From positions 1 to 6,722 of the forward strand of contig JADFSZ010000097.1 in NCBI GenBank assembly GCA_022560555.1: DNA of 6,722 nucleotides, in the 5' to 3' direction. Positions 1 through 6,500 of the stretch are shown in pieces. Numbering within the stretch: position 1 is the stretch's first letter; the number at the start of each line of letters is the position of its first letter. The position numbers and the translations under genes were made by a program. Source of the stretch: PVC group bacterium (lineage in GTDB: Bacteria; GCA-001730085; JADFSZ01). The notes beneath the pieces are model-generated. The model saw only the letters and a program-made list of their open reading frames with translations. It did no database searches and had not been told where the DNA came from.

Positions 1-850
1 CATTTTCTCCCTGACTTGCGGCCACTTGAGAAACCAACGTTTCCGCCATAATCCAGATTTCACCCCCAACATCCACAAAAACGTACGTTTGCTCATCATG
101 AACTGAAACCGCCCGGTTCGCAGGCAAAGTCCAAGGGGTCGTTGTCCAAATGAGAAGATACACAGGCTTTTTTAGGCCCTGGTCATCCTCACATCGAAAT
201 TTGACAAAAATCGACGGGCTTGTTTTAGATTCATGTTCTACTTCGGCTTCCGCGAGAGCCGTCTGACAGGTGCAACACCAATGAATGGGACGCAATTTCT
301 TATAAACAAATCCGCGCTCGACCAATTTTCGAAAACTTTTTAAAATCGCCGCTTCGTAACTAGTATCCATCGTCAAATACGGTTTTTCCCAATCACCAAA
401 AATTCCCAAACGCTCAAACTCTTCCTTCTGTATTTTGATAAATTTATCCGCGTATTCACGGCACTTTTTTCGAATTTTTAAAGTGTCCTCAACGTCTTGA
501 CCCCCTGGAGATTTGACAACCTGGTGCTCGATCGGAAGGCCGTGACAATCCCAGCCGGGGACATACGGACAATCGAAGCCATCCAAAGAATGAAATTTCA
601 CAACAAAATCCTTGAGTGTTTTATTGAGAACATGGCCTAAATGAATGTGACCGTTAGCATAGGGAGGGCCGTCATGAAGAACGTATTTCTTCTGCCCCTT
701 TCGTTTTTCACGCAGCGCGGAATACATATTAAGACTCGACCAATACCGGAGGATCTCCGGTTCTTTCATCGTCAAATTCGCCTTCATGGAAAAATTCGTT
801 GAGGGCAGATTGATCGTGTCTTTATAATTCGTTTTTTCTTGAGTACCCAT
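1..850 (-). CDS. ileS: Isoleucyl-tRNA synthetase, N-terminal ~283 codons; the 3' end runs off the left edge of the window
   Basis: This ORF is absent from the supplied track because the window truncates it. Hand translation of the reverse complement from the ATG at 850..848 gives MGTQEKTNYKDTINLPSTNFSMKANLTMKEPEILRYWSSLNMYSALREKRKGQKKYVLHDGPPYANGHIHLGHVLNKTLKDFVVKFHSLDGFDCPYVPGWDCHGLPIEHQ... It stays open to position 1. It carries the class I HIGH signature (PPYANGHIHLGH), then GWDCHGLPIE and later TTTPWTLPAN, all typical of bacterial IleS. Confidence 0.9.
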   Translation of the reverse strand, partial: MGTQEKTNYKDTINLPSTNFSMKANLTMKEPEILRYWSSLNMYSALREKRKGQKKYVLHDGPPYANGHIHLGHVLNKTLKDFVVKFHSLDGFDCPYVPGWDCHGLPIEHQVVKSPGGQDVEDTLKIRKKCREYADKFIKIQKEEFERLGIFGDWEKPYLTMDTSYEAAILKSFRKLVERGFVYKKLRPIHWCCTCQTALAEAEVEHESKTSPSIFVKFRCEDDQGLKKPVYLLIWTTTPWTLPANRAVSVHDEQTYVFVDVGGEIWIMAETLVSQVAASQGEN

Positions 851-913
851 TGTCAGTTCGGAGTTATGAATTTGTGATTTTTTTCGATTTACTATTTACC
901 ATTTACGATTTAC
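851..913. repeat. In-phase heptanucleotide tandem array: four clear NATTTAC units at 886-913, preceded by five degenerate heptads
   Basis: The plus strand reads GATTTAC(886) TATTTAC(893) CATTTAC(900) GATTTAC(907). On the minus strand this is GTAAATn x4. In the same 7-nt phase upstream lie TGTCAGT(851) TCGGAGT(858) TATGAAT(865) TTGTGAT(872) TTTTTCG(879). The array covers the mtnP stop codon (903-905) and fills the whole mtnP-ileS gap. Confidence 0.8.
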
Positions 914-1778
914 GGTCTTTCAGATGTTTCCCTATAATGAGTTCCAGCTTTTTTTTAGTGGCATCCGGAATAGCACTTACCTCCGTGATAATGGCTTTGT
1001 CCAGGGCATGAGCGCAAGAGCAATTCCGCTCAACAGGTATCTCGGGAACAATCCGGCGGATCATTTTTTTGGCCTTATCCACATTGGCCAAAAGGTGCTG
1101 AACCACCGTCTCCACCGTAACGTCTTCTTCTTCCTCGTGCCAGCAATCATAATCCGTCACCATCGCCATGGTGACATAACATATCTCGGCTTCTCGCGCG
1201 AGCTTCGCTTCATATAGATTCGTCATCCCAATCACATCCATGCCCCAACTTCGATAAAGTTGCGATTCGGCCTTCGTTGAAAACGCGGGCCCTTCCATGT
1301 TCACATATGTCCCCTTGGCGTGAACCCCCAGATGTTCTCGGCGACCCGCGGCTACCGCCTGTTCGGCTAAAACAGGACAAATCGGTTGGCCAAAGGAAAT
1401 ATGCGCCACACACCCTTCACCAAAAAATGTTCCCTTTCGTCCTTGATTTGTCCGATCCACAAACTGGTCCGGAACAACCATATCCCGGGGTTTATATTCT
1501 TCCTTGAGGCTGCCCACGGCGGAAATCGAAAGAATCCGCGAGACACCCAAAAATTTCATTCCGTAAATGTTAGCCCGGTAATTGATCTCCGACGGTGTTA
1601 AACGATGTCCTTTTCCGTGCCGAGCAAGAAAAACAACGTCCACACCGCCCAAGTTTCCCGTCACATATTCATCCGAGGCCGGTCCCCAAGGGGTATCTAC
1701 CCGAACAGAATTGATATCCATCAAGTCATCCATATTATAAAGTCCGCTTCCGCCAATAATTCCGATTTTTTGTCCCAT
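903..1778 (-). CDS. mtnP: S-methyl-5'-thioadenosine phosphorylase (purine nucleoside phosphorylase family 2)
   Basis: 291-aa ORF. The N-terminus reads [11 protein letters not shown]. It also contains [46 protein letters not shown] and VTDYDCW, which are characteristic MTAP motifs. A GAGG Shine-Dalgarno-like element sits about 10 nt upstream of the ATG, inside the end of the preceding gene. Confidence 0.9.
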
Positions 1779-1783
1779 TTCTG

Positions 1784-2020
1784 CTATGCCTCAATTTTTA
1801 ATGTCTTGTCCCTGGATCTTTTTCCTTTTACGATGGAAACAGCGGATATGCGCACATGATACATTTTCGCAATCATCTTTTTTAGAGCCTCATTGGCTTT
1901 TCCGTCTTCCGGTACCGCGGTAAGCTTGGCCCGAAACCGGTTTTTTCCCAACAAAATCAATTCATTTTTGCGGGCCCGAGGTATTACGCGCACTTCTATC
2001 ACACGAACACTTTGACTCAA
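1784..2020 (-). CDS. yggU: DUF167 (YggU-like) small protein
   Basis: 78-aa ORF containing [13 protein letters not shown]...[25 protein letters not shown]...[16 protein letters not shown]. This matches the DUF167 pattern (V.P.A..N......L.V....P.DGKAN.AL...L........V.I..G..SR.K). The assigned start is a TTG that overlaps the yggT stop codon as TTGA, so the exact start is uncertain. Confidence 0.75.
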
Positions 2021-2337
2021 AATATTCCCATGGAGGATGAACTTAATTGAACAATGTAAATATAAAAATTCTGCAGAATTTCCCGCAGAATATTAATCCC
2101 CACAAGCACAACCCAAGGGGTCAAGTCCATCATACCAATTTGCAAAAACGGCATCAGACGTTTGGCTTTTTGAAGAACAGGATCCGTTAATGAACACAAA
2201 ATGCGCACAACAGGATTATACGGATCTGGATTGACCCAGGAAAGGAACACACGGATAAGAATAATCCAGAAATATCCCGACAAAAGCATCATGCCGAAGC
2301 TTAAAATTCCTTTAAGAATAGGACCTAGTACAATCAT
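2017..2337 (-). CDS. yggT: YggT/Ycf19-family integral membrane protein
   Basis: The ORF contains LIRVFLSWVNPDPYNPVVRILCSLTDPVLQKAKRLMP, the YggT signature, flanked by hydrophobic helices. The track begins it at a TTG (2349). I prefer the ATG at 2337..2335, which is preceded by GGAG (2347..2344) with a 6-nt spacer. That start gives 106 aa. Confidence 0.8.
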   Translation of the reverse strand: MIVLGPILKGILSFGMMLLSGYFWIILIRVFLSWVNPDPYNPVVRILCSLTDPVLQKAKRLMPFLQIGMMDLTPWVVLVGINILREILQNFYIYIVQLSSSSMGIF

Positions 2338-2352
2338 GTTCCACTCCAAATT

Positions 2353-3177
2353 TTACGTGTTCAGTTTTGACAAATCATCCGCGCGTTTCGCTGCATTTTT
2401 AACCGTCTCAAGAATGATGCCGGAAAAATCTTTTTGATCCATCACACTCATGCCGGCCTCCGTTGTGCCGCCGGGAGATGTAACTTTTTTCCGGAGCTCT
2501 TCGGGTGGTACGGAAGATTCCGCGAGCAGCTTTGCCGATCCCAGGATCGTCTGAAGTATCAATTCCTTCGCAAGATCAGCCGCTAAACCCAGTTTTTCAC
2601 CAGCACGAATCAACTCTTCGGCTAAACGAAAAACATAAGCCGGGCCCGATCCCGAAAGAGCGGTAATTAAATTCATCTGAGACTCTTTCACCTCAACAAC
2701 CCGTCCGACGGATTCAAAAACAGCTCGAACCACAGAACGATTTTTATCGCTGACGTTCGCGCTAAACGCCAGTGCCGTCATCGCTTCTCCGATAAGAGCC
2801 GGCGTGTTCGGCATCACACGCACAACATCTGTGTCCGGACCTAAAACGTTTTTGATGACCTCCGATGAGACACCGGCCACAATGGAGACGATCACTTTGC
2901 CTTCGGTTTGGTTTGAAATTTCATCCAAAATAGTTTTAATCTGCTGAGGCTTAACGGCCAAAATCAAGATGTCACTGGCTTCAAGGATGGAAATATTCCT
3001 GGAGGAAATATTGATGCCGGTTTCTTCTTTGAGTTGGGTCAGTCTCTCGGGCCTGACATCGCTTGCGTGAATGTTGTCAGGAATAGTAATCTTTTTCTGG
3101 AGCATCCCTTTTATCAGGGCCTCGGCCATATTGCCGGCACCGATAAAACCGATAATTTTACTGATTTTTTTAACCAT
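2353..3177 (-). CDS. proC: Pyrroline-5-carboxylate reductase
   Basis: 274-aa ORF. It has an N-terminal Rossmann motif IGFIGAGNMAEALIKG, the block LAVKPQ, and the C-terminal ProC signature VTSPGGTTEAG. Confidence 0.92.
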   Translation of the reverse strand: MVKKISKIIGFIGAGNMAEALIKGMLQKKITIPDNIHASDVRPERLTQLKEETGINISSRNISILEASDILILAVKPQQIKTILDEISNQTEGKVIVSIVAGVSSEVIKNVLGPDTDVVRVMPNTPALIGEAMTALAFSANVSDKNRSVVRAVFESVGRVVEVKESQMNLITALSGSGPAYVFRLAEELIRAGEKLGLAADLAKELILQTILGSAKLLAESSVPPEELRKKVTSPGGTTEAGMSVMDQKDFSGIILETVKNAAKRADDLSKLNT

Positions 3178-3183
3178 TTTATG

Positions 3184-3288
3184 AGTTCAGATGTCAGAGA
3201 CCAGCGGTCAGAGTTCAGAAGTCAGATACTGTCTTCTGTTTTCTGTTATCTGTCTTCTACCTTTGTCATTTATCATTTCTCATTGGTT
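3184..3288. repeat. About 15 contiguous in-phase heptanucleotide units in three sub-families; the first two are inverted relative to each other
   Basis: Plus-strand sub-family 1: AGTTCAG(3184) ATGTCAG(3191) AGACCAG(3198) CGGTCAG(3205) AGTTCAG(3212) AAGTCAG(3219). Sub-family 2: ATACTGT(3226) CTTCTGT(3233) TTTCTGT(3240) TATCTGT(3247) CTTCTAC(3254). Sub-family 3: CTTTGTC(3261) ATTTATC(3268) ATTTCTC(3275) ATTGGTT(3282). The array fills the yggS-proC gap and extends into the last codons of yggS. Confidence 0.85.
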
Positions 3289-3959
3289 TCTAAGACTCCC
3301 TCAAAAACGGCACTGCCGATTCGAAGTATATCCGCGCCTTCTTCCAAAGCCAACGGATAATCGTGACTCATCCCCATAGATAATTTCCATCTTGAATTGT
3401 ATTTTAGCCGCATGTTGTGCAATGCCTTAAATGTGCTGCGAATCCATTCAGCATCATCGGTTAAAGGCGCCATCGTCATCAGACCCAGTATGCGAATATT
3501 CTGACAAGACTCTATCTGATTTAAAACGCTTTCGACCTCTTCGGGGCGGAGGCCCCATTTAGCCTCCTCACCGGATGTGTTCACCTCCAAAAAAACATCA
3601 ACCTTCTTGCCAACTTTTTCGGCTTGTTGATTTATCGCTTGGGCCAATTTCAAACTATCCACAGAATGAATCGTTGAAAATATTTCGAGAGCCGTTTTGA
3701 CTTTGTTGGTCTGCAAATGACCGATCATGTGCCAGCAAAAAGGTTCTTTGATATGACGTATCTTTTCTTTCGCTTCTTGGACTCTATTTTCACCCAAATC
3801 CTGAACATCCAGAGCCATCAATTCACGCACCACTTCGGCAGGAATTGTTTTCGTAACGACAACGAGTCTAATCTCTTGGCTGTTCCGGTGATGTTTCTCA
3901 CAAATGTGCCGGATATGTGTGCGTATCCGATCAAGATTTTCCCGAAGACGCTCCTTCAT
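3273..3959 (-). CDS. yggS: YggS/PLPBP-family pyridoxal-phosphate-binding protein (alanine-racemase-N fold)
   Basis: 228-aa ORF containing [56 protein letters not shown] and [28 protein letters not shown]-like blocks. These are typical of YggS, including the PLP lysine in the VTK motif. Confidence 0.9.
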   Translation of the reverse strand: [228 protein letters not shown]

Positions 3960-3967
3960 GGGGGGCT

Positions 3968-3995
3968 ATTATAGTGAAAACTTTAGAAAAATCAA
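3968..3995 (-). promoter_or_regulatory. Putative sigma70-type promoter for yggS and the downstream minus-strand genes
   Basis: The minus strand reads TTGATT (3995..3990), a 16-nt spacer, then a perfect TATAAT (3973..3968). Only 8 nt (AGCCCCCC) separate the -10 box from the yggS ATG at 3959. This is a motif-based prediction only. Confidence 0.5.
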
Positions 3996-4058: not shown

Positions 4059-6500
4059 ATGAGGAACTCAACCGGAGCTTCTCTCATGGCGGCCATCGTC
4101 ATCATGGTTCTAATAGCCACTTTGGGAGGCACGTTTACATTTCTGATGTCCACGCATTATCGGGCTTTGCCGCTCGATACAGACTTCGCCCAAGCCAACA
4201 GCATCGCACATGCGGGAGTGGAGTGGACCTTAAAAAATCTCATTCCGACTGCGAGTCCCATCCCATTTGCCGGAGGGACATTCAGTGTGACTCAAGATGG
4301 AAACGTATTTACGGTTACCGCACGTCATGGATCTGCCCGTGTCATTTTTACGGTGTCGCCTCCAGCGGTTCTGAGCCTCATCCTCATACCTTCTAACGGA
4401 CCAACAGGAACACTTCTTACGATTCAGGGGCAGGGATTTCAATCAAATGAAACCCTCAACTTAGCCAGCTCGAAATATGGAACGGAACCTCCTGTGCTTT
4501 TGATCAATCTTACCGACACGGGAACATTTGCCGGGGATTCCATATCCGGCACGAACAATGAACTCGTCACAACGGACACAATCGGAAATTTTGAAGTGAC
4601 ATGGGTTGTGACATGGATCACGGATCCCGGGGGAGTGTCGGTCCCCTATGAAATTGATTCCGCCAATGGAACCTCGGACCCGAGTTCGGTTGTCTTCACC
4701 GTAACCCAAGATCCGAGTTATGTCATATTGATTTCGCCCATTTTTGGGTATCCGGGCACAATACTCACTATCACGGGTTTTAACTTATCGGCAAGTACCA
4801 CTTACAACCTTGAAGATGGATTTGGAACCCGTTTAACAACGTTTACGGATGTGGATAACGGAACCTATGATGGCGATGCTGTGGGCGGTCCATCCAATCG
4901 AGATATTACAACAGATATTTCGGGTGGATTTCAAATCACATGGCGGGCCAATCAAGAACCAACAGCAGACTTTGGTGATACCATTGATATCCGGGGAGGT
5001 GGCTTTACGGCCGGGTTTCTTTTTACAGCTTTACGCCCCCTTCTCACATTAACTCCGTCATCCGTGGAAGAAGACGACACCATGCTCGTCCGAGGTGATG
5101 GCTTTTACAGAAACAATGCTGCAGAAACAGGTTTTCGTATGGATTATGACTCGGGTCCTGACCGGCTTGAAAATATGTTGGATACATCCACATTTTTCGG
5201 CGATAGTATTTCCGGCGGAGCCAATGATCGTGTCAATGCAAATGCGGACGGTAAATTTGAATTTGTTTGGACGGTTAATTCATCGAACCTTAGAAAGGGA
5301 TCAACCATCTCGTCCGGAACCCACAATATCGATAAAAAAGGCGGCGGTCAAGATCCGGCCGCGGCTGAATTTACGTTTACTAAACCCGGCGTTATTCGTC
5401 AGCTGACAATAGCCATTACAGGAGAAGTACAAGCCCTTCAAGTTGGATTCTTGAATGACGATTCCGGGGACACGCAGTTTCCGGATGTGGCCATTGGGAC
5501 AAAAACAGGCAAAAATTCCGGCAGGGTTGAGATTTGGCTCAATACCGCGGATGAAACCGGTAACATCACGTCTCATAGCACATTCACTGCGAACAACAGT
5601 GTCAATGCCCTAGCTCTTTCAGCCATTCAAGGGGGTGATACCGACGACGATATCATGGTCGGGAACAACGCTAAGGGATCCAATGCCATTGAAATTTGGA
5701 TCAATGATGGGACAGGAACTTTTACAGAAGATAACAACAGTCCTTACAATGCCAATAAAAAAGTTCTTGCGGTAACCCATGCCGACATGGATGGTGACGA
5801 TACGGATGATCTGATCTATGGGGACGATGATAAGAAAATTACGGTCCGACTTCATACGGGGAATGCTGATTTTGGCTCCGCATTAACAGTGTCACTTAAT
5901 AAAAAACCCTTAGCCCTTGCGGCAGGCAATATCTCTGAAGACACAAATGGAGACATAGATATTATGGCTGGCACTGATGATAAAAACGGCGAAATTAAAG
6001 TGACCGAAAACGATGGCGCGGGAAATCTCAGTGAGGAAAGCAGCAGCCCCTACAATACCTCCGGTAAACAGGTGCGAGCCATAGATGCGGGTGATATGAA
6101 TGCGGACGGATTTATTGATATCGTTGTTGGGACACGCAACGGAGCTGCGAATCGCGAAATCGAAGTCTGGCTCAACAATGGAGATGGGACTTTTACGAAG
6201 GATGATGATTATGAAATTGCATTAAAAATTAATGCATTGAAGCTTGGAGACATAGATAATGATGGTGACTTGGACGTAGTTATTGGCGTTGAAATCCCGG
6301 GAAACACGGGGCAGGTGGAAGTATGGCTGAACGATGGCAGCGGAAATCTTACAGAAGACACGAACAGCCCCTTTGCGGTCGATGGGAAAGTCCTTGCTCT
6401 TGATCTTGGCGATATGGATCAAGATGATACAATCGATATCGTGGCAGGAACAAAAACAGGAGGATCAACAGGCAATATTGTCATTTTATTTTTAGATTAA
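4059..6500 (+). CDS. Large secreted or pilus-associated protein: PilX/GspK-like hydrophobic N-terminus, 3 IPT/TIG-like modules, and a seven-blade FG-GAP/VCBS beta-propeller
   Basis: 813-aa uninterrupted ORF. Residues 1-60 include TGASLMAAIVIMVLIATLGGTFTFLMS followed by AQANSIAHAGVEW. Residues ~103-443 hold three ~110-aa modules opening with IPT-like LILIPSNGPTGTLLTIQGQGF, ILISPIFGYPGTILTITGFNL and LTLTPSSVEEDDTMLVRGDGF. Residues ~444-813 hold seven repeats of the type GDIDNDGDLDVVIG...GQVEVWLNDGSGNLTE. I saw no cysteine on reading; the protein is rich in D, T, G and N. An alternative start exists at the ATG at 4086. Confidence 0.85.
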   Translation: MRNSTGASLMAAIVIMVLIATLGGTFTFLMSTHYRALPLDTDFAQANSIAHAGVEWTLKNLIPTASPIPFAGGTFSVTQDGNVFTVTARHGSARVIFTVSPPAVLSLILIPSNGPTGTLLTIQGQGFQSNETLNLASSKYGTEPPVLLINLTDTGTFAGDSISGTNNELVTTDTIGNFEVTWVVTWITDPGGVSVPYEIDSANGTSDPSSVVFTVTQDPSYVILISPIFGYPGTILTITGFNLSASTTYNLEDGFGTRLTTFTDVDNGTYDGDAVGGPSNRDITTDISGGFQITWRANQEPTADFGDTIDIRGGGFTAGFLFTALRPLLTLTPSSVEEDDTMLVRGDGFYRNNAAETGFRMDYDSGPDRLENMLDTSTFFGDSISGGANDRVNANADGKFEFVWTVNSSNLRKGSTISSGTHNIDKKGGGQDPAAAEFTFTKPGVIRQLTIAITGEVQALQVGFLNDDSGDTQFPDVAIGTKTGKNSGRVEIWLNTADETGNITSHSTFTANNSVNALALSAIQGGDTDDDIMVGNNAKGSNAIEIWINDGTGTFTEDNNSPYNANKKVLAVTHADMDGDDTDDLIYGDDDKKITVRLHTGNADFGSALTVSLNKKPLALAAGNISEDTNGDIDIMAGTDDKNGEIKVTENDGAGNLSEESSSPYNTSGKQVRAIDAGDMNADGFIDIVVGTRNGAANREIEVWLNNGDGTFTKDDDYEIALKINALKLGDIDNDGDLDVVIGVEIPGNTGQVEVWLNDGSGNLTEDTNSPFAVDGKVLALDLGDMDQDDTIDIVAGTKTGGSTGNIVILFLD

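Follow-up and report, generated by a model that had tools for sequence, protein, structure and literature searches.

The window analysed here is a 6722-bp stretch of DNA that makes up one entire NCBI contig (JADFSZ010000097.1) from a bacterium labelled as belonging to the PVC group. On its minus strand the genes yggS and proC are separated by a 95-nt spacer, and this entire spacer, together with the final yggS codons, consists of three abutting arrays of tandem heptamers, two of which form the arms of a predicted hairpin. The spacer is probably a hypermutable cassette of heptamers driven by slippage and recombination, like the STRR sequences of cyanobacteria (short, tandemly repeated and repetitive) and other long simple sequence repeats (LSSR), with the hairpin as a by-product or as a weak, non-specific stem-loop. 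This reading is carried mainly by the alleles found at the same junction in other strains.

On the plus strand, positions 3184-3260 can be cut into 11 in-register heptamers. Six units of the form nnnYCAG (AGTTCAG ATGTCAG AGACCAG CGGTCAG AGTTCAG AAGTCAG, cut from 3184) are followed after 3225 by five CTGT-like units (ATACTGT CTTCTGT TTTCTGT TATCTGT CTTCTAC). Identity at a lag of 7 nt is 0.63 across this region, compared with 0.26 ± 0.06 in 5000 dinucleotide-preserving shuffles, none of which reaches the observed value. The left half alone gives 0.66 against 0.25 (1 of 5000 shuffles reaches it) and the right half 0.71 against 0.37 (0 of 5000). A preliminary description of the window, made from its sequence, had read the region as 11 in-phase heptamers in two mutually inverted halves, of types nnGTCAG and nTTCTGT. 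The 11 units and their periodicity hold, but the literal types are found in only three of the six left units and two of the five right units, and the cores that the units have in common are YCAG and CTGT. The halves are also imperfect inverses of each other, since the mRNA 5' arm repeats ACAGAAN and the 3' arm CTGANNT, which leaves a systematic A/A mismatch in each period.

When lags from 4 to 12 nt were scanned across the 6.7-kb window, stretches with 22 or more matches in 28 appeared for lag 7 alone (879-919 and 3229-3263). Tandem Repeats Finder reported four heptamer arrays in the window: 3183-3226 (best period 14, 3.1 copies), 3229-3258 (period 7, 4.3 copies), 3262-3284 (period 7, AATGANA x3.3) and 881-914 (period 7, 4.9 copies). 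The third of these adjoins the repeats at 3184-3260 and overlaps the yggS stop codon, so that the repeat-built region reaches 3284 and not 3260 as first described. Read along the mRNA, the order is UGA, AAUGANA units, about five ACAGAAN units, UAU, six CUGANNU units, CAUAAA and AUG. Because of the TGA triplets in the CTGA units of the 3' arm, proC is preceded by stop codons in all three frames. The features are listed below; L001, L005 and L008 denote alleles from other strains of the species, and L007 is a cassette-free relative.

3262..3284, minus strand: heptamer array 1, about 3.3 units (AATGAGA AATGATA AATGACA), found by Tandem Repeats Finder; overlaps the yggS stop codon at 3273-3275. 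It is the conserved left boundary of the cassette, with CTTAGAAACCAATGAnAAAT in every cassette-bearing allele and not in L007.
3229..3260, minus strand: heptamer array 2, the mRNA 5' arm and the right half of the preliminary description, (T)AGAAG ACAGATA ACAGAAA ACAGAAG ACAG; purine-rich.
3226..3228, minus strand: hairpin loop, UAU on the mRNA; 4 nt (GUAU or GCAU) in L005 and L008.
3184..3225, minus strand: heptamer array 3, the mRNA 3' arm and the left half of the preliminary description, CTGACTT CTGAACT CTGACCG CTGGTCT CTGACAT CTGAACT.
3216..3238, minus strand: core hairpin CAGAAGACAG-UAU-CUGACUUCUG, 9 of 10 pairs; no other part of the stem survives in every one of the four type-A alleles, and in L005 all 10 pairs form.
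3178..3183, minus strand: CAUAAA, which separates the proC AUG from the final heptamer; no Shine-Dalgarno sequence.
881..914, minus strand: heptamer array 4, CGTAAAT x4.9, lying between mtnP and ileS and running over the stop codon of mtnP at 903-905 (Tandem Repeats Finder).
855..911, minus strand: 57-nt segment GTAAATGGTAAATAGTAAATCGAAAAAAATCACAAATTCATAACTCCGAACT, with a near-identical copy in the yggS-proC spacer of strain L001.

Alleles at the yggS-proC junction

Alleles were compared on nine public contigs of same-species strains and one contig from a 90% relative, all from independent samples and chosen as encoding members of the ProC and YggS 90% clusters. Their arrangements, with copy numbers as read from short-read assemblies, are as follows.

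Type A, the window (WIN): 5 units in the 5' arm and 6 in the 3' arm; loop of 3 nt.
Type A, L005: 6 and 8 units, a gain of 7 nt in the first arm and 14 nt in the second over the window; all 10 bp of the core stem pair; loop of 4 nt.
Type A, L008 with L249: about 5 and 8 units; loop of 4 nt (L008).
Type A, L251: 5 and 2 units, with a 28-nt deletion; loop of 3 nt.
Type B, L001: GTAAATN x3, then AAAAAAAATCACAAATTCATAACCCCGAACT, then GAAACTG x5; no inverted arms.
Type C, L006: GACACAA x4.6, a 20-nt centre and a G/T-rich, partly complementary partner arm.
No cassette, L007 (90% relative): 11-nt gap with the Shine-Dalgarno sequence AAGGAAG.
No cassette, L002 (60% relative): 9-nt gap with AAGGA.

Type A was seen in four samples, and the L250 junction begins like type B. 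Indels within type A come in steps of 7, 14 and 28 nt. The 3' arm has 2 units in L251, 6 in the window and 8 in L005 and L008. The 5' arm has one additional unit in L005 and about the same number in L008, where the series of units is different. The suggestion that the spacer belongs to a DNA-level repeat family is thus borne out, as the spacers of relatives vary in repeat-unit steps. The 7-nt phase said to run unbroken across the junction of the two arms does so in the window and is not conserved, as the loop is 4 nt long in L005 and L008.

The three cassette types have common boundaries and unlike interiors. Nucleotide identity of proC to the window is 98.4% in L005, 98.3% in L006, 96.1% in L001, 95.9% in L008 and 90.5% in L007. 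The clearest case is L006, whose yggS is 98.9% identical to that of the window and whose mtnP-ileS spacer is identical, yet the two yggS-proC cassettes are unrelated. Since the flanking genes are nearly identical, cassettes have been replaced wholesale within what the usual identity criteria make one species. The YggS C-terminus, …LETNEK*, is encoded by array 1 in the window, whereas YggS of the cassette-free L007 (223 aa) ends in …FEGVV*, five residues sooner; cassette insertion has therefore rewritten the C-terminal tail of YggS. Parsimony makes the cassette a derived insertion, one that took the place of a Shine-Dalgarno site. Likewise, a heptamer array, that of CGTAAAT units, encodes the mtnP tail, …DRKS*.

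Repeat material is also found in both sizeable spacers. In local alignment, window positions 855-911 of the mtnP-ileS spacer match positions 27-86 of L001, which lie in the yggS-proC spacer, with one mismatch and three gapped positions. In L008 the CGTAAAT array of the mtnP-ileS spacer is shortened to 3.4 units and followed by AACAGAG x4.7, an ACAGAAN-like array. Across strains, the two spacers hold four arrays and at least six unit families. Seven contig ends lie inside or at the edges of cassettes (L001, L005, L008, L249, L250 and L252), as would be expected if the arrays are dispersed repeats. All public contigs of the species are short, at 6.7 kb or less, and heptamer arrays probably fragment the short-read assemblies of this lineage. 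A 22-mer from the dispersed segment had no match in JGI metagenome contigs.

In the proposed mechanism, units would be gained and lost by slipped-strand mispairing, and whole cassettes would be swapped when dispersed arrays undergo ectopic recombination or gene conversion with one another. Strand-switching on the first array may have given rise to the inverted arm. The cassette would be transcribed within the operon and, once folded, form an imperfect hairpin whose core is 10 bp long and whose CAGA/UCUG helices are of 4 bp. This hairpin would be at most a non-specific intercistronic stem-loop, as has been proposed and never demonstrated for STRR hairpins, and proC would be translated without a Shine-Dalgarno sequence from the A/U-rich CAUAAAAUG region.

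Several points weigh against this mechanism. Genome-wide dispersion rests on two spacers, one common segment and the contig breaks. Copy numbers may be partly mis-assembled; typical reads are longer than the arrays, and type A was recovered from four samples. Some patterns hint at selection and not at pure drift: all arrays are A-rich or purine-rich on the sense strand, the cassette boundaries are conserved, and every cassette-bearing allele persists even though a gene of an essential pathway has lost its Shine-Dalgarno sequence. Finally, the polarity of inverted array pairs across phyla (27 versus 6, described below) is not predicted by symmetric slippage.

At this one fixed junction in the operon, a single species offers a natural series of alleles: one without a cassette, others with 3' arms of 2, 6 or 8 units, and two with unrelated cassettes. 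Next to the easily assayed proC, the series is material for testing mRNA stability, Shine-Dalgarno-independent translation or the tolerance of hypermutable DNA, and strain-specific cassettes could serve as fine-scale strain markers.

Hairpin, translation start and mobility

The alternative that survives best, and is nevertheless unlikely, is a functional intercistronic RNA hairpin that protects the yggS message from 3'-exonucleases, directs processing or sets the yggS:proC ratio. The core hairpin of the preliminary description (3216-3225, loop ATA, 3229-3238) was reproduced in the predicted fold with 9 of 10 pairs, as were the 4-bp CAGA/UCUG helices that recur every 7 nt. Minus-strand RNA from 3170-3290 gave a minimum free energy of -26.2 kcal/mol, more stable than shuffled sequences (z = -3.0), and the plus strand gave z = -4.0. 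Other type-A alleles bring the range to -2.4 to -7.2. The most stable is L005 (z = -7.2), in which an A-to-T change perfects the core stem. None of the four type-A alleles has lost this 10-bp core, and type C also has an A-rich arm followed by a partly complementary one, with a moderate fold (z = -1.9). Adjacent inverted heptamer arrays occur in many phyla, mostly in co-directional gaps. A role in transcript stability or translational coupling has been suggested for STRR hairpins (PMC2670836), and the repetitive extragenic palindromic (REP) sequences and bacterial interspersed mosaic elements (BIME) of E. coli offer a precedent.

The comparison of alleles speaks against such a function. The copy numbers of the two arms change independently of each other (5/6, 6/8, about 5/8 and 5/2), and no compensatory changes were seen between alleles. 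In L008 a change from ACAGATA to ACAGACA breaks a pair with CTGTTAT and is uncompensated. Type B (L001) lacks inverted arms altogether and has a weak fold (z = -1.8), and the element is missing from L007 and L002. No covariance model of Rfam 15 matched the spacer at E ≤ 1. The predicted unpaired probability near the proC AUG lies between 0.55 and 0.70 in all alleles, the cassette-free one included, so that accessibility of the start region does not follow the alleles. The RNA structure therefore gave no sign of selection or of a conserved RNA function, and the specific RNA-level element favoured in the preliminary description (a processing or stability determinant, or a protein-binding array) is left unsupported.

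Two further RNA candidates were tried and rejected. In WIN and L251, AACCAAUGAG of the yggS tail can pair perfectly with CUCAU…UGGUU to give a 5+5-bp helix that closes the cassette and includes the proC AUG; in other alleles 8 of 10 pairs can form. The two substitutions that perfect this helix are both non-synonymous (Asp to Glu in YggS and Ala to Val in ProC). Sequestration of the proC start by the cassette was rejected as a conserved mechanism, with the helix perfect only in WIN and L251 and accessibility not following the alleles. A leader peptide or attenuator was rejected because the only open reading frame (ORF) in the spacer, of seven codons (AUG ACA AAG GUA GAA GAC AGA UAA), has no proline codons.

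A second alternative, to which we give little weight, places the function in the 3' arm. Here CTGANNT units, a TAACTGA-type array, would stand in for the Shine-Dalgarno sequence, giving the ribosome, or an RNA-binding protein (S1, Csp or CsrA-like), a place to land, and the ACAGAAN arm could serve as anti-sequence. It draws on the translation starts. The last CTGAACT unit stops 6 nt short of the proC AUG with no GGAG-like motif there, whereas the cassette-free relatives L007 and L002 have AAGGAAG and AAGGA. The gene ileS, which is also preceded by a cassette, has no Shine-Dalgarno sequence and carries CCGAACT 4 nt upstream of its AUG, while yggT and mtnP, which have no arrays in front, have GGAG and GAGG. 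All cassette types finish in CYGAAYT, followed by 4-8 A-rich nt and ATG, and most TAACTGA sets of 'Maribeggiatoa' are arranged forward at starts without a ribosome-binding site (RBS) (PMC4679880). The motifs themselves are less favourable. As a start-proximal motif CYGAAYT is not enriched in the window (5 found, 5.3 expected), and TAACTGA has no copy in the window, where the units most like it, CTGAAAT and CTGACAT, have two positions that depart from its rotation CTGATAA. A 3' arm that varies from 2 to 8 units, with other units in type B, is ill-suited to a tuned binding array, and the function of TAACTGA is itself only a hypothesis.

The cassette could also be a miniature mobile element, resembling a miniature inverted-repeat transposable element (MITE) or a small dispersed repeat (SDR), inserted and moved by an enzyme encoded elsewhere, with the arrays as its arms or as its preferred target. 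This we consider improbable as a full account, though it is compatible with slippage and recombination and does not exclude them. Presence or absence at a fixed site with conserved boundaries would suit it, as would the 57-nt segment found in two different spacers and the partly similar cores of about 60 nt between inverted arrays at several loci in two Chthonomonadaceae genomes. By eye, no target-site duplications or terminal inverted repeats were recognised apart from the arrays; the 22-mer of the dispersed segment is absent from JGI metagenome contigs, and the Pfam domains of the window include no transposase-like gene and none resembling REP-associated tyrosine transposases (RAYT). Because the cassettes have common boundaries and differing interiors, recombination within arrays fits better than transposition of a defined unit.

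A classical regulatory signal, be it an intrinsic terminator or attenuator, an internal promoter or a phase-variable proC switch, is very improbable: in its favour are the hairpin itself and a polymorphic copy number, as contingency loci have, but the stem is A/U-rich and not GC-rich, AACUCUGACC follows it with no U-tract, a scan of the spacer (3178-3272) found no promoter-like or terminator-like site on either strand, the tract lies outside ORFs and not between promoter hexamers, the flanking genes are housekeeping genes and neither surface nor restriction-modification genes, and a proline-rich leader peptide is lacking. The preliminary description was thus right to argue against a simple intrinsic terminator.

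Gene context and heptamer arrays across phyla

Genes at 1-3959 are all on the minus strand, tightly packed and co-directional, in the order yggS-proC-yggT-DUF167-mtnP-ileS. ORFs and Pfam domains therefore agree with the earlier placement of the element between yggS and proC in one co-directional string. The mtnP-ileS junction is the other sizeable co-directional spacer, and it carries the array of CGUAAAU x4.9. The genes are as follows.

3273..3959, minus strand: yggS, pyridoxal phosphate-binding YggS/PLPBP family (ORF, Pfam PF01168); upstream of the cassette.
2353..3177, minus strand: proC, pyrroline-5-carboxylate reductase (PF03807 and PF14748); downstream of the cassette.
2337-2017, minus strand: yggT (ORF/Pfam).
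2020-1784, minus strand: DUF167 gene (ORF/Pfam).
1778-903, minus strand: mtnP, methylthioadenosine (MTA)/purine-nucleoside phosphorylase (ORF/Pfam).
850 to contig end, minus strand: ileS (ORF/Pfam).

Upstream of yggS, at 3960-3995 on the minus strand, TTGATT-16-TATAAT matches the promoter consensus and ends 8 nt upstream of the yggS ATG. Judged by this consensus match, the yggS mRNA would be leaderless or nearly so. Divergent from yggS, 4059-6500 on the plus strand encodes an 813-aa protein with FG-GAP/VCBS repeats and a hydrophobic, pilin-like N-terminal segment. An FG-GAP/VCBS-repeat neighbour is also found upstream of yggS in L002, L006 and L249-L251. The 813-aa protein had no exact-sequence match in a collection of 15 billion proteins.

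A member of the YggS cluster is annotated 'YggS family pyridoxal phosphate-dependent enzyme [PVC group bacterium]', and sibling proteins labelled 'PVC group bacterium' come from the metagenome-assembled genome (MAG) GCA_022561295.1. The closest ProC beyond the 90% cluster of the window shares 60% identity, and no named match exceeds 47%. A ProC-based scan of GTDB genomes found no relative, and the exact ProC sequence of the window had no match in the assembly index. In L002, a 9-nt repeat (ACAAAAAAT x2.9) lies at 1140-1165 inside the first proC codons and an AAAAAGG x2.7 heptamer array lies at 1991-2009 in the proC-yggT spacer; A-rich short tandem repeats at gene junctions therefore reach more distant relatives.

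The pattern ACAGAANACAGAANACAGAA, which represents ACAGAAN x3, was found at no fewer than 120 loci in JGI metagenome contigs and at least 120 in GTDB genomes. Hosts among the listed matches include Omnitrophota, Planctomycetota, Verrucomicrobiota, Parachlamydiaceae, Bacteroidota, Acidobacteriota, Nitrospirota, Desulfobacterota, Gallionella, Chthonomonadaceae, several cyanobacteria, Saccharibacteria and a Vibrio. A census was made of 240 of these loci (L009-L248; 1.44 Mb), all chosen for this one unit family, with genes called crudely as the longest non-overlapping ORFs. With the seed arrays excluded, period 7 was the commonest tandem period (300 arrays, with a further 96 of period 14 and 43 of period 21), compared with 73 arrays of period 6, 103 of period 8 and 196 of period 9. 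Of 512 heptamer arrays, 57% were intergenic, against about 18% of non-coding sequence. Non-seed heptamer units of the 240 loci gave no strong signal of a common trinucleotide core such as CAG/CTG.

An (ACAGAAG)n-loop-(CTGACTT)n architecture like that of the window was seen in L032, L037, L050, L097 and L116, at G+C contents from 0.45 to 0.69. Adjacent inverted array pairs numbered 34, mostly in co-directional gaps and in many phyla. Among the 33 that could be scored, the purine-rich arm was 5' in 27 and the pyrimidine-rich arm in 6 (p = 3e-4), and a stricter regular expression gave 13 versus 0 in favour of the purine arm. Unpaired arrays in co-directional gaps were purine-rich on the sense strand in 45 cases versus 14 (p = 6.5e-5), and they tend to adjoin the upstream stop codon. 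From these two polarities it may be asked whether palindromic heptamer-array cassettes are a distinct intergenic class across phyla and not random microsatellites, which at present seems doubtful. Members of such a class would begin with a purine-rich array after the upstream stop; a loop or short core would separate it from its complement, an array of pyrimidine-rich or CTGA type that leads to the downstream start codon. Its polarity would be constrained, and in the lineage of the window the cassette would displace the Shine-Dalgarno sequence. If the class is real, its polarity would point either to a function on polycistronic mRNA, such as Shine-Dalgarno-independent re-initiation or the tuning of expression, or to a directional build-out of DNA from a break or hairpin.

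In MAGs of Chthonomonadaceae, inverted heptamer arrays surround cores of about 55-62 nt (L207 at 6715-6839; L241 at 7106-7232; L168 at 1652-1775 and 3214-3335). The cores are partly alike within a genome (GTCAGAGTTTGCAA…AAGTTTGCA…GGCATT, and GAAnTGCCCTGCTG), and the flanking units differ (AGAAAAC, AGAAGAC and GGTAGAC). These loci look like a dispersed element made of a core plus arrays.

Comparison with known systems

Tandem heptamers are a feature known from cyanobacteria since 1990, and since 2007-2015 from other phyla as well, with no established role that we are aware of. The window units ACAGAAN, CTGANNT, AATGANA and CGTAAAT differ from what we take to be the canonical STRR1-3 heptamers. 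Strain-level replacement of cassettes is, as far as we are aware, not part of the STRR description. In the heptamer arrays of Nostoc, small dispersed repeats are said to be nested.

The STRR analogy drawn in the preliminary description is apt. Hairpin-forming arrays of 7-bp STRR units lie between hupS and hupL in several filamentous cyanobacteria, where their function is unknown and a contribution to transcript stability or translational coupling has been suggested (PMC2670836). Both systems have tandem 7-bp units, several families together, an intergenic position within co-transcribed pairs and hairpin potential. A GTCAG-type unit also occurs in a spacer of Nostoc PCC 7120, as TTGTCAG x3 (PMC2408588, Table 3). 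The host differs, being labelled here as a PVC-group bacterium and not a cyanobacterium.

Direct repeats of the heptamer TAACTGA are found in marine Beggiatoaceae, some Cyanobacteria and Bacteroidetes (MacGregor 2015, PMC4679880). In 'Maribeggiatoa' most TAACTGA (= CTGATAA) sets are forward and directly upstream of start codons without an RBS. A number of sets run into the upstream ORF, other heptamers are interspersed with them, and strains differ in 7-nt steps; close relatives have short spacers free of repeats, and contigs break at the repeats (PMC4679880). The window cassette similarly has forward units a few nt from an RBS-less start, combines different heptamers and overlaps the end of the upstream ORF. 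Strains differ by indels of 7, 14 or 28 nt, contigs end inside the repeats, and the repeat-free spacer of L007 is 11 nt long. The units here are instead CTGANNT and ACAGAAN, and the inverted arrangement is the main feature, whereas one inverted set alone was reported in 'Maribeggiatoa' (PMC4679880).

Among LSSR, heptamers are the most abundant class and slippage has been proposed as their origin, according to the summary of Mrazek et al. 2007 given in PMC4679880. The arrays here resemble LSSR in being tandem runs of 5-11-nt units that are longer than expected by chance, and the period census agrees on heptamers. LSSR form a statistical class without a set architecture, and the term says nothing of inverted pairs or operon position.

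The REP, BIME and REPIN elements of Proteobacteria are likewise transcribed imperfect palindromes in operon spacers, dispersed and polymorphic between strains, and they can stabilise mRNA. They differ in having one conserved consensus of 20-40 nt and no tandem 7-nt units, whereas the cassettes here differ mutually. REP sequences are also linked to RAYT transposases (PMC3116915), and the window holds no RAYT-like gene. Contingency loci with simple sequence repeats share hypermutable tandem repeats of strain-polymorphic copy number. Theirs lie in the ORFs or promoters of surface or restriction-modification genes and act as on/off switches, whereas the cassette is intercistronic between housekeeping genes and is replaced whole. 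Because the literature on STRR, TAACTGA and LSSR repeats matches it, the architecture of the window is best regarded as a known kind in a new host lineage.

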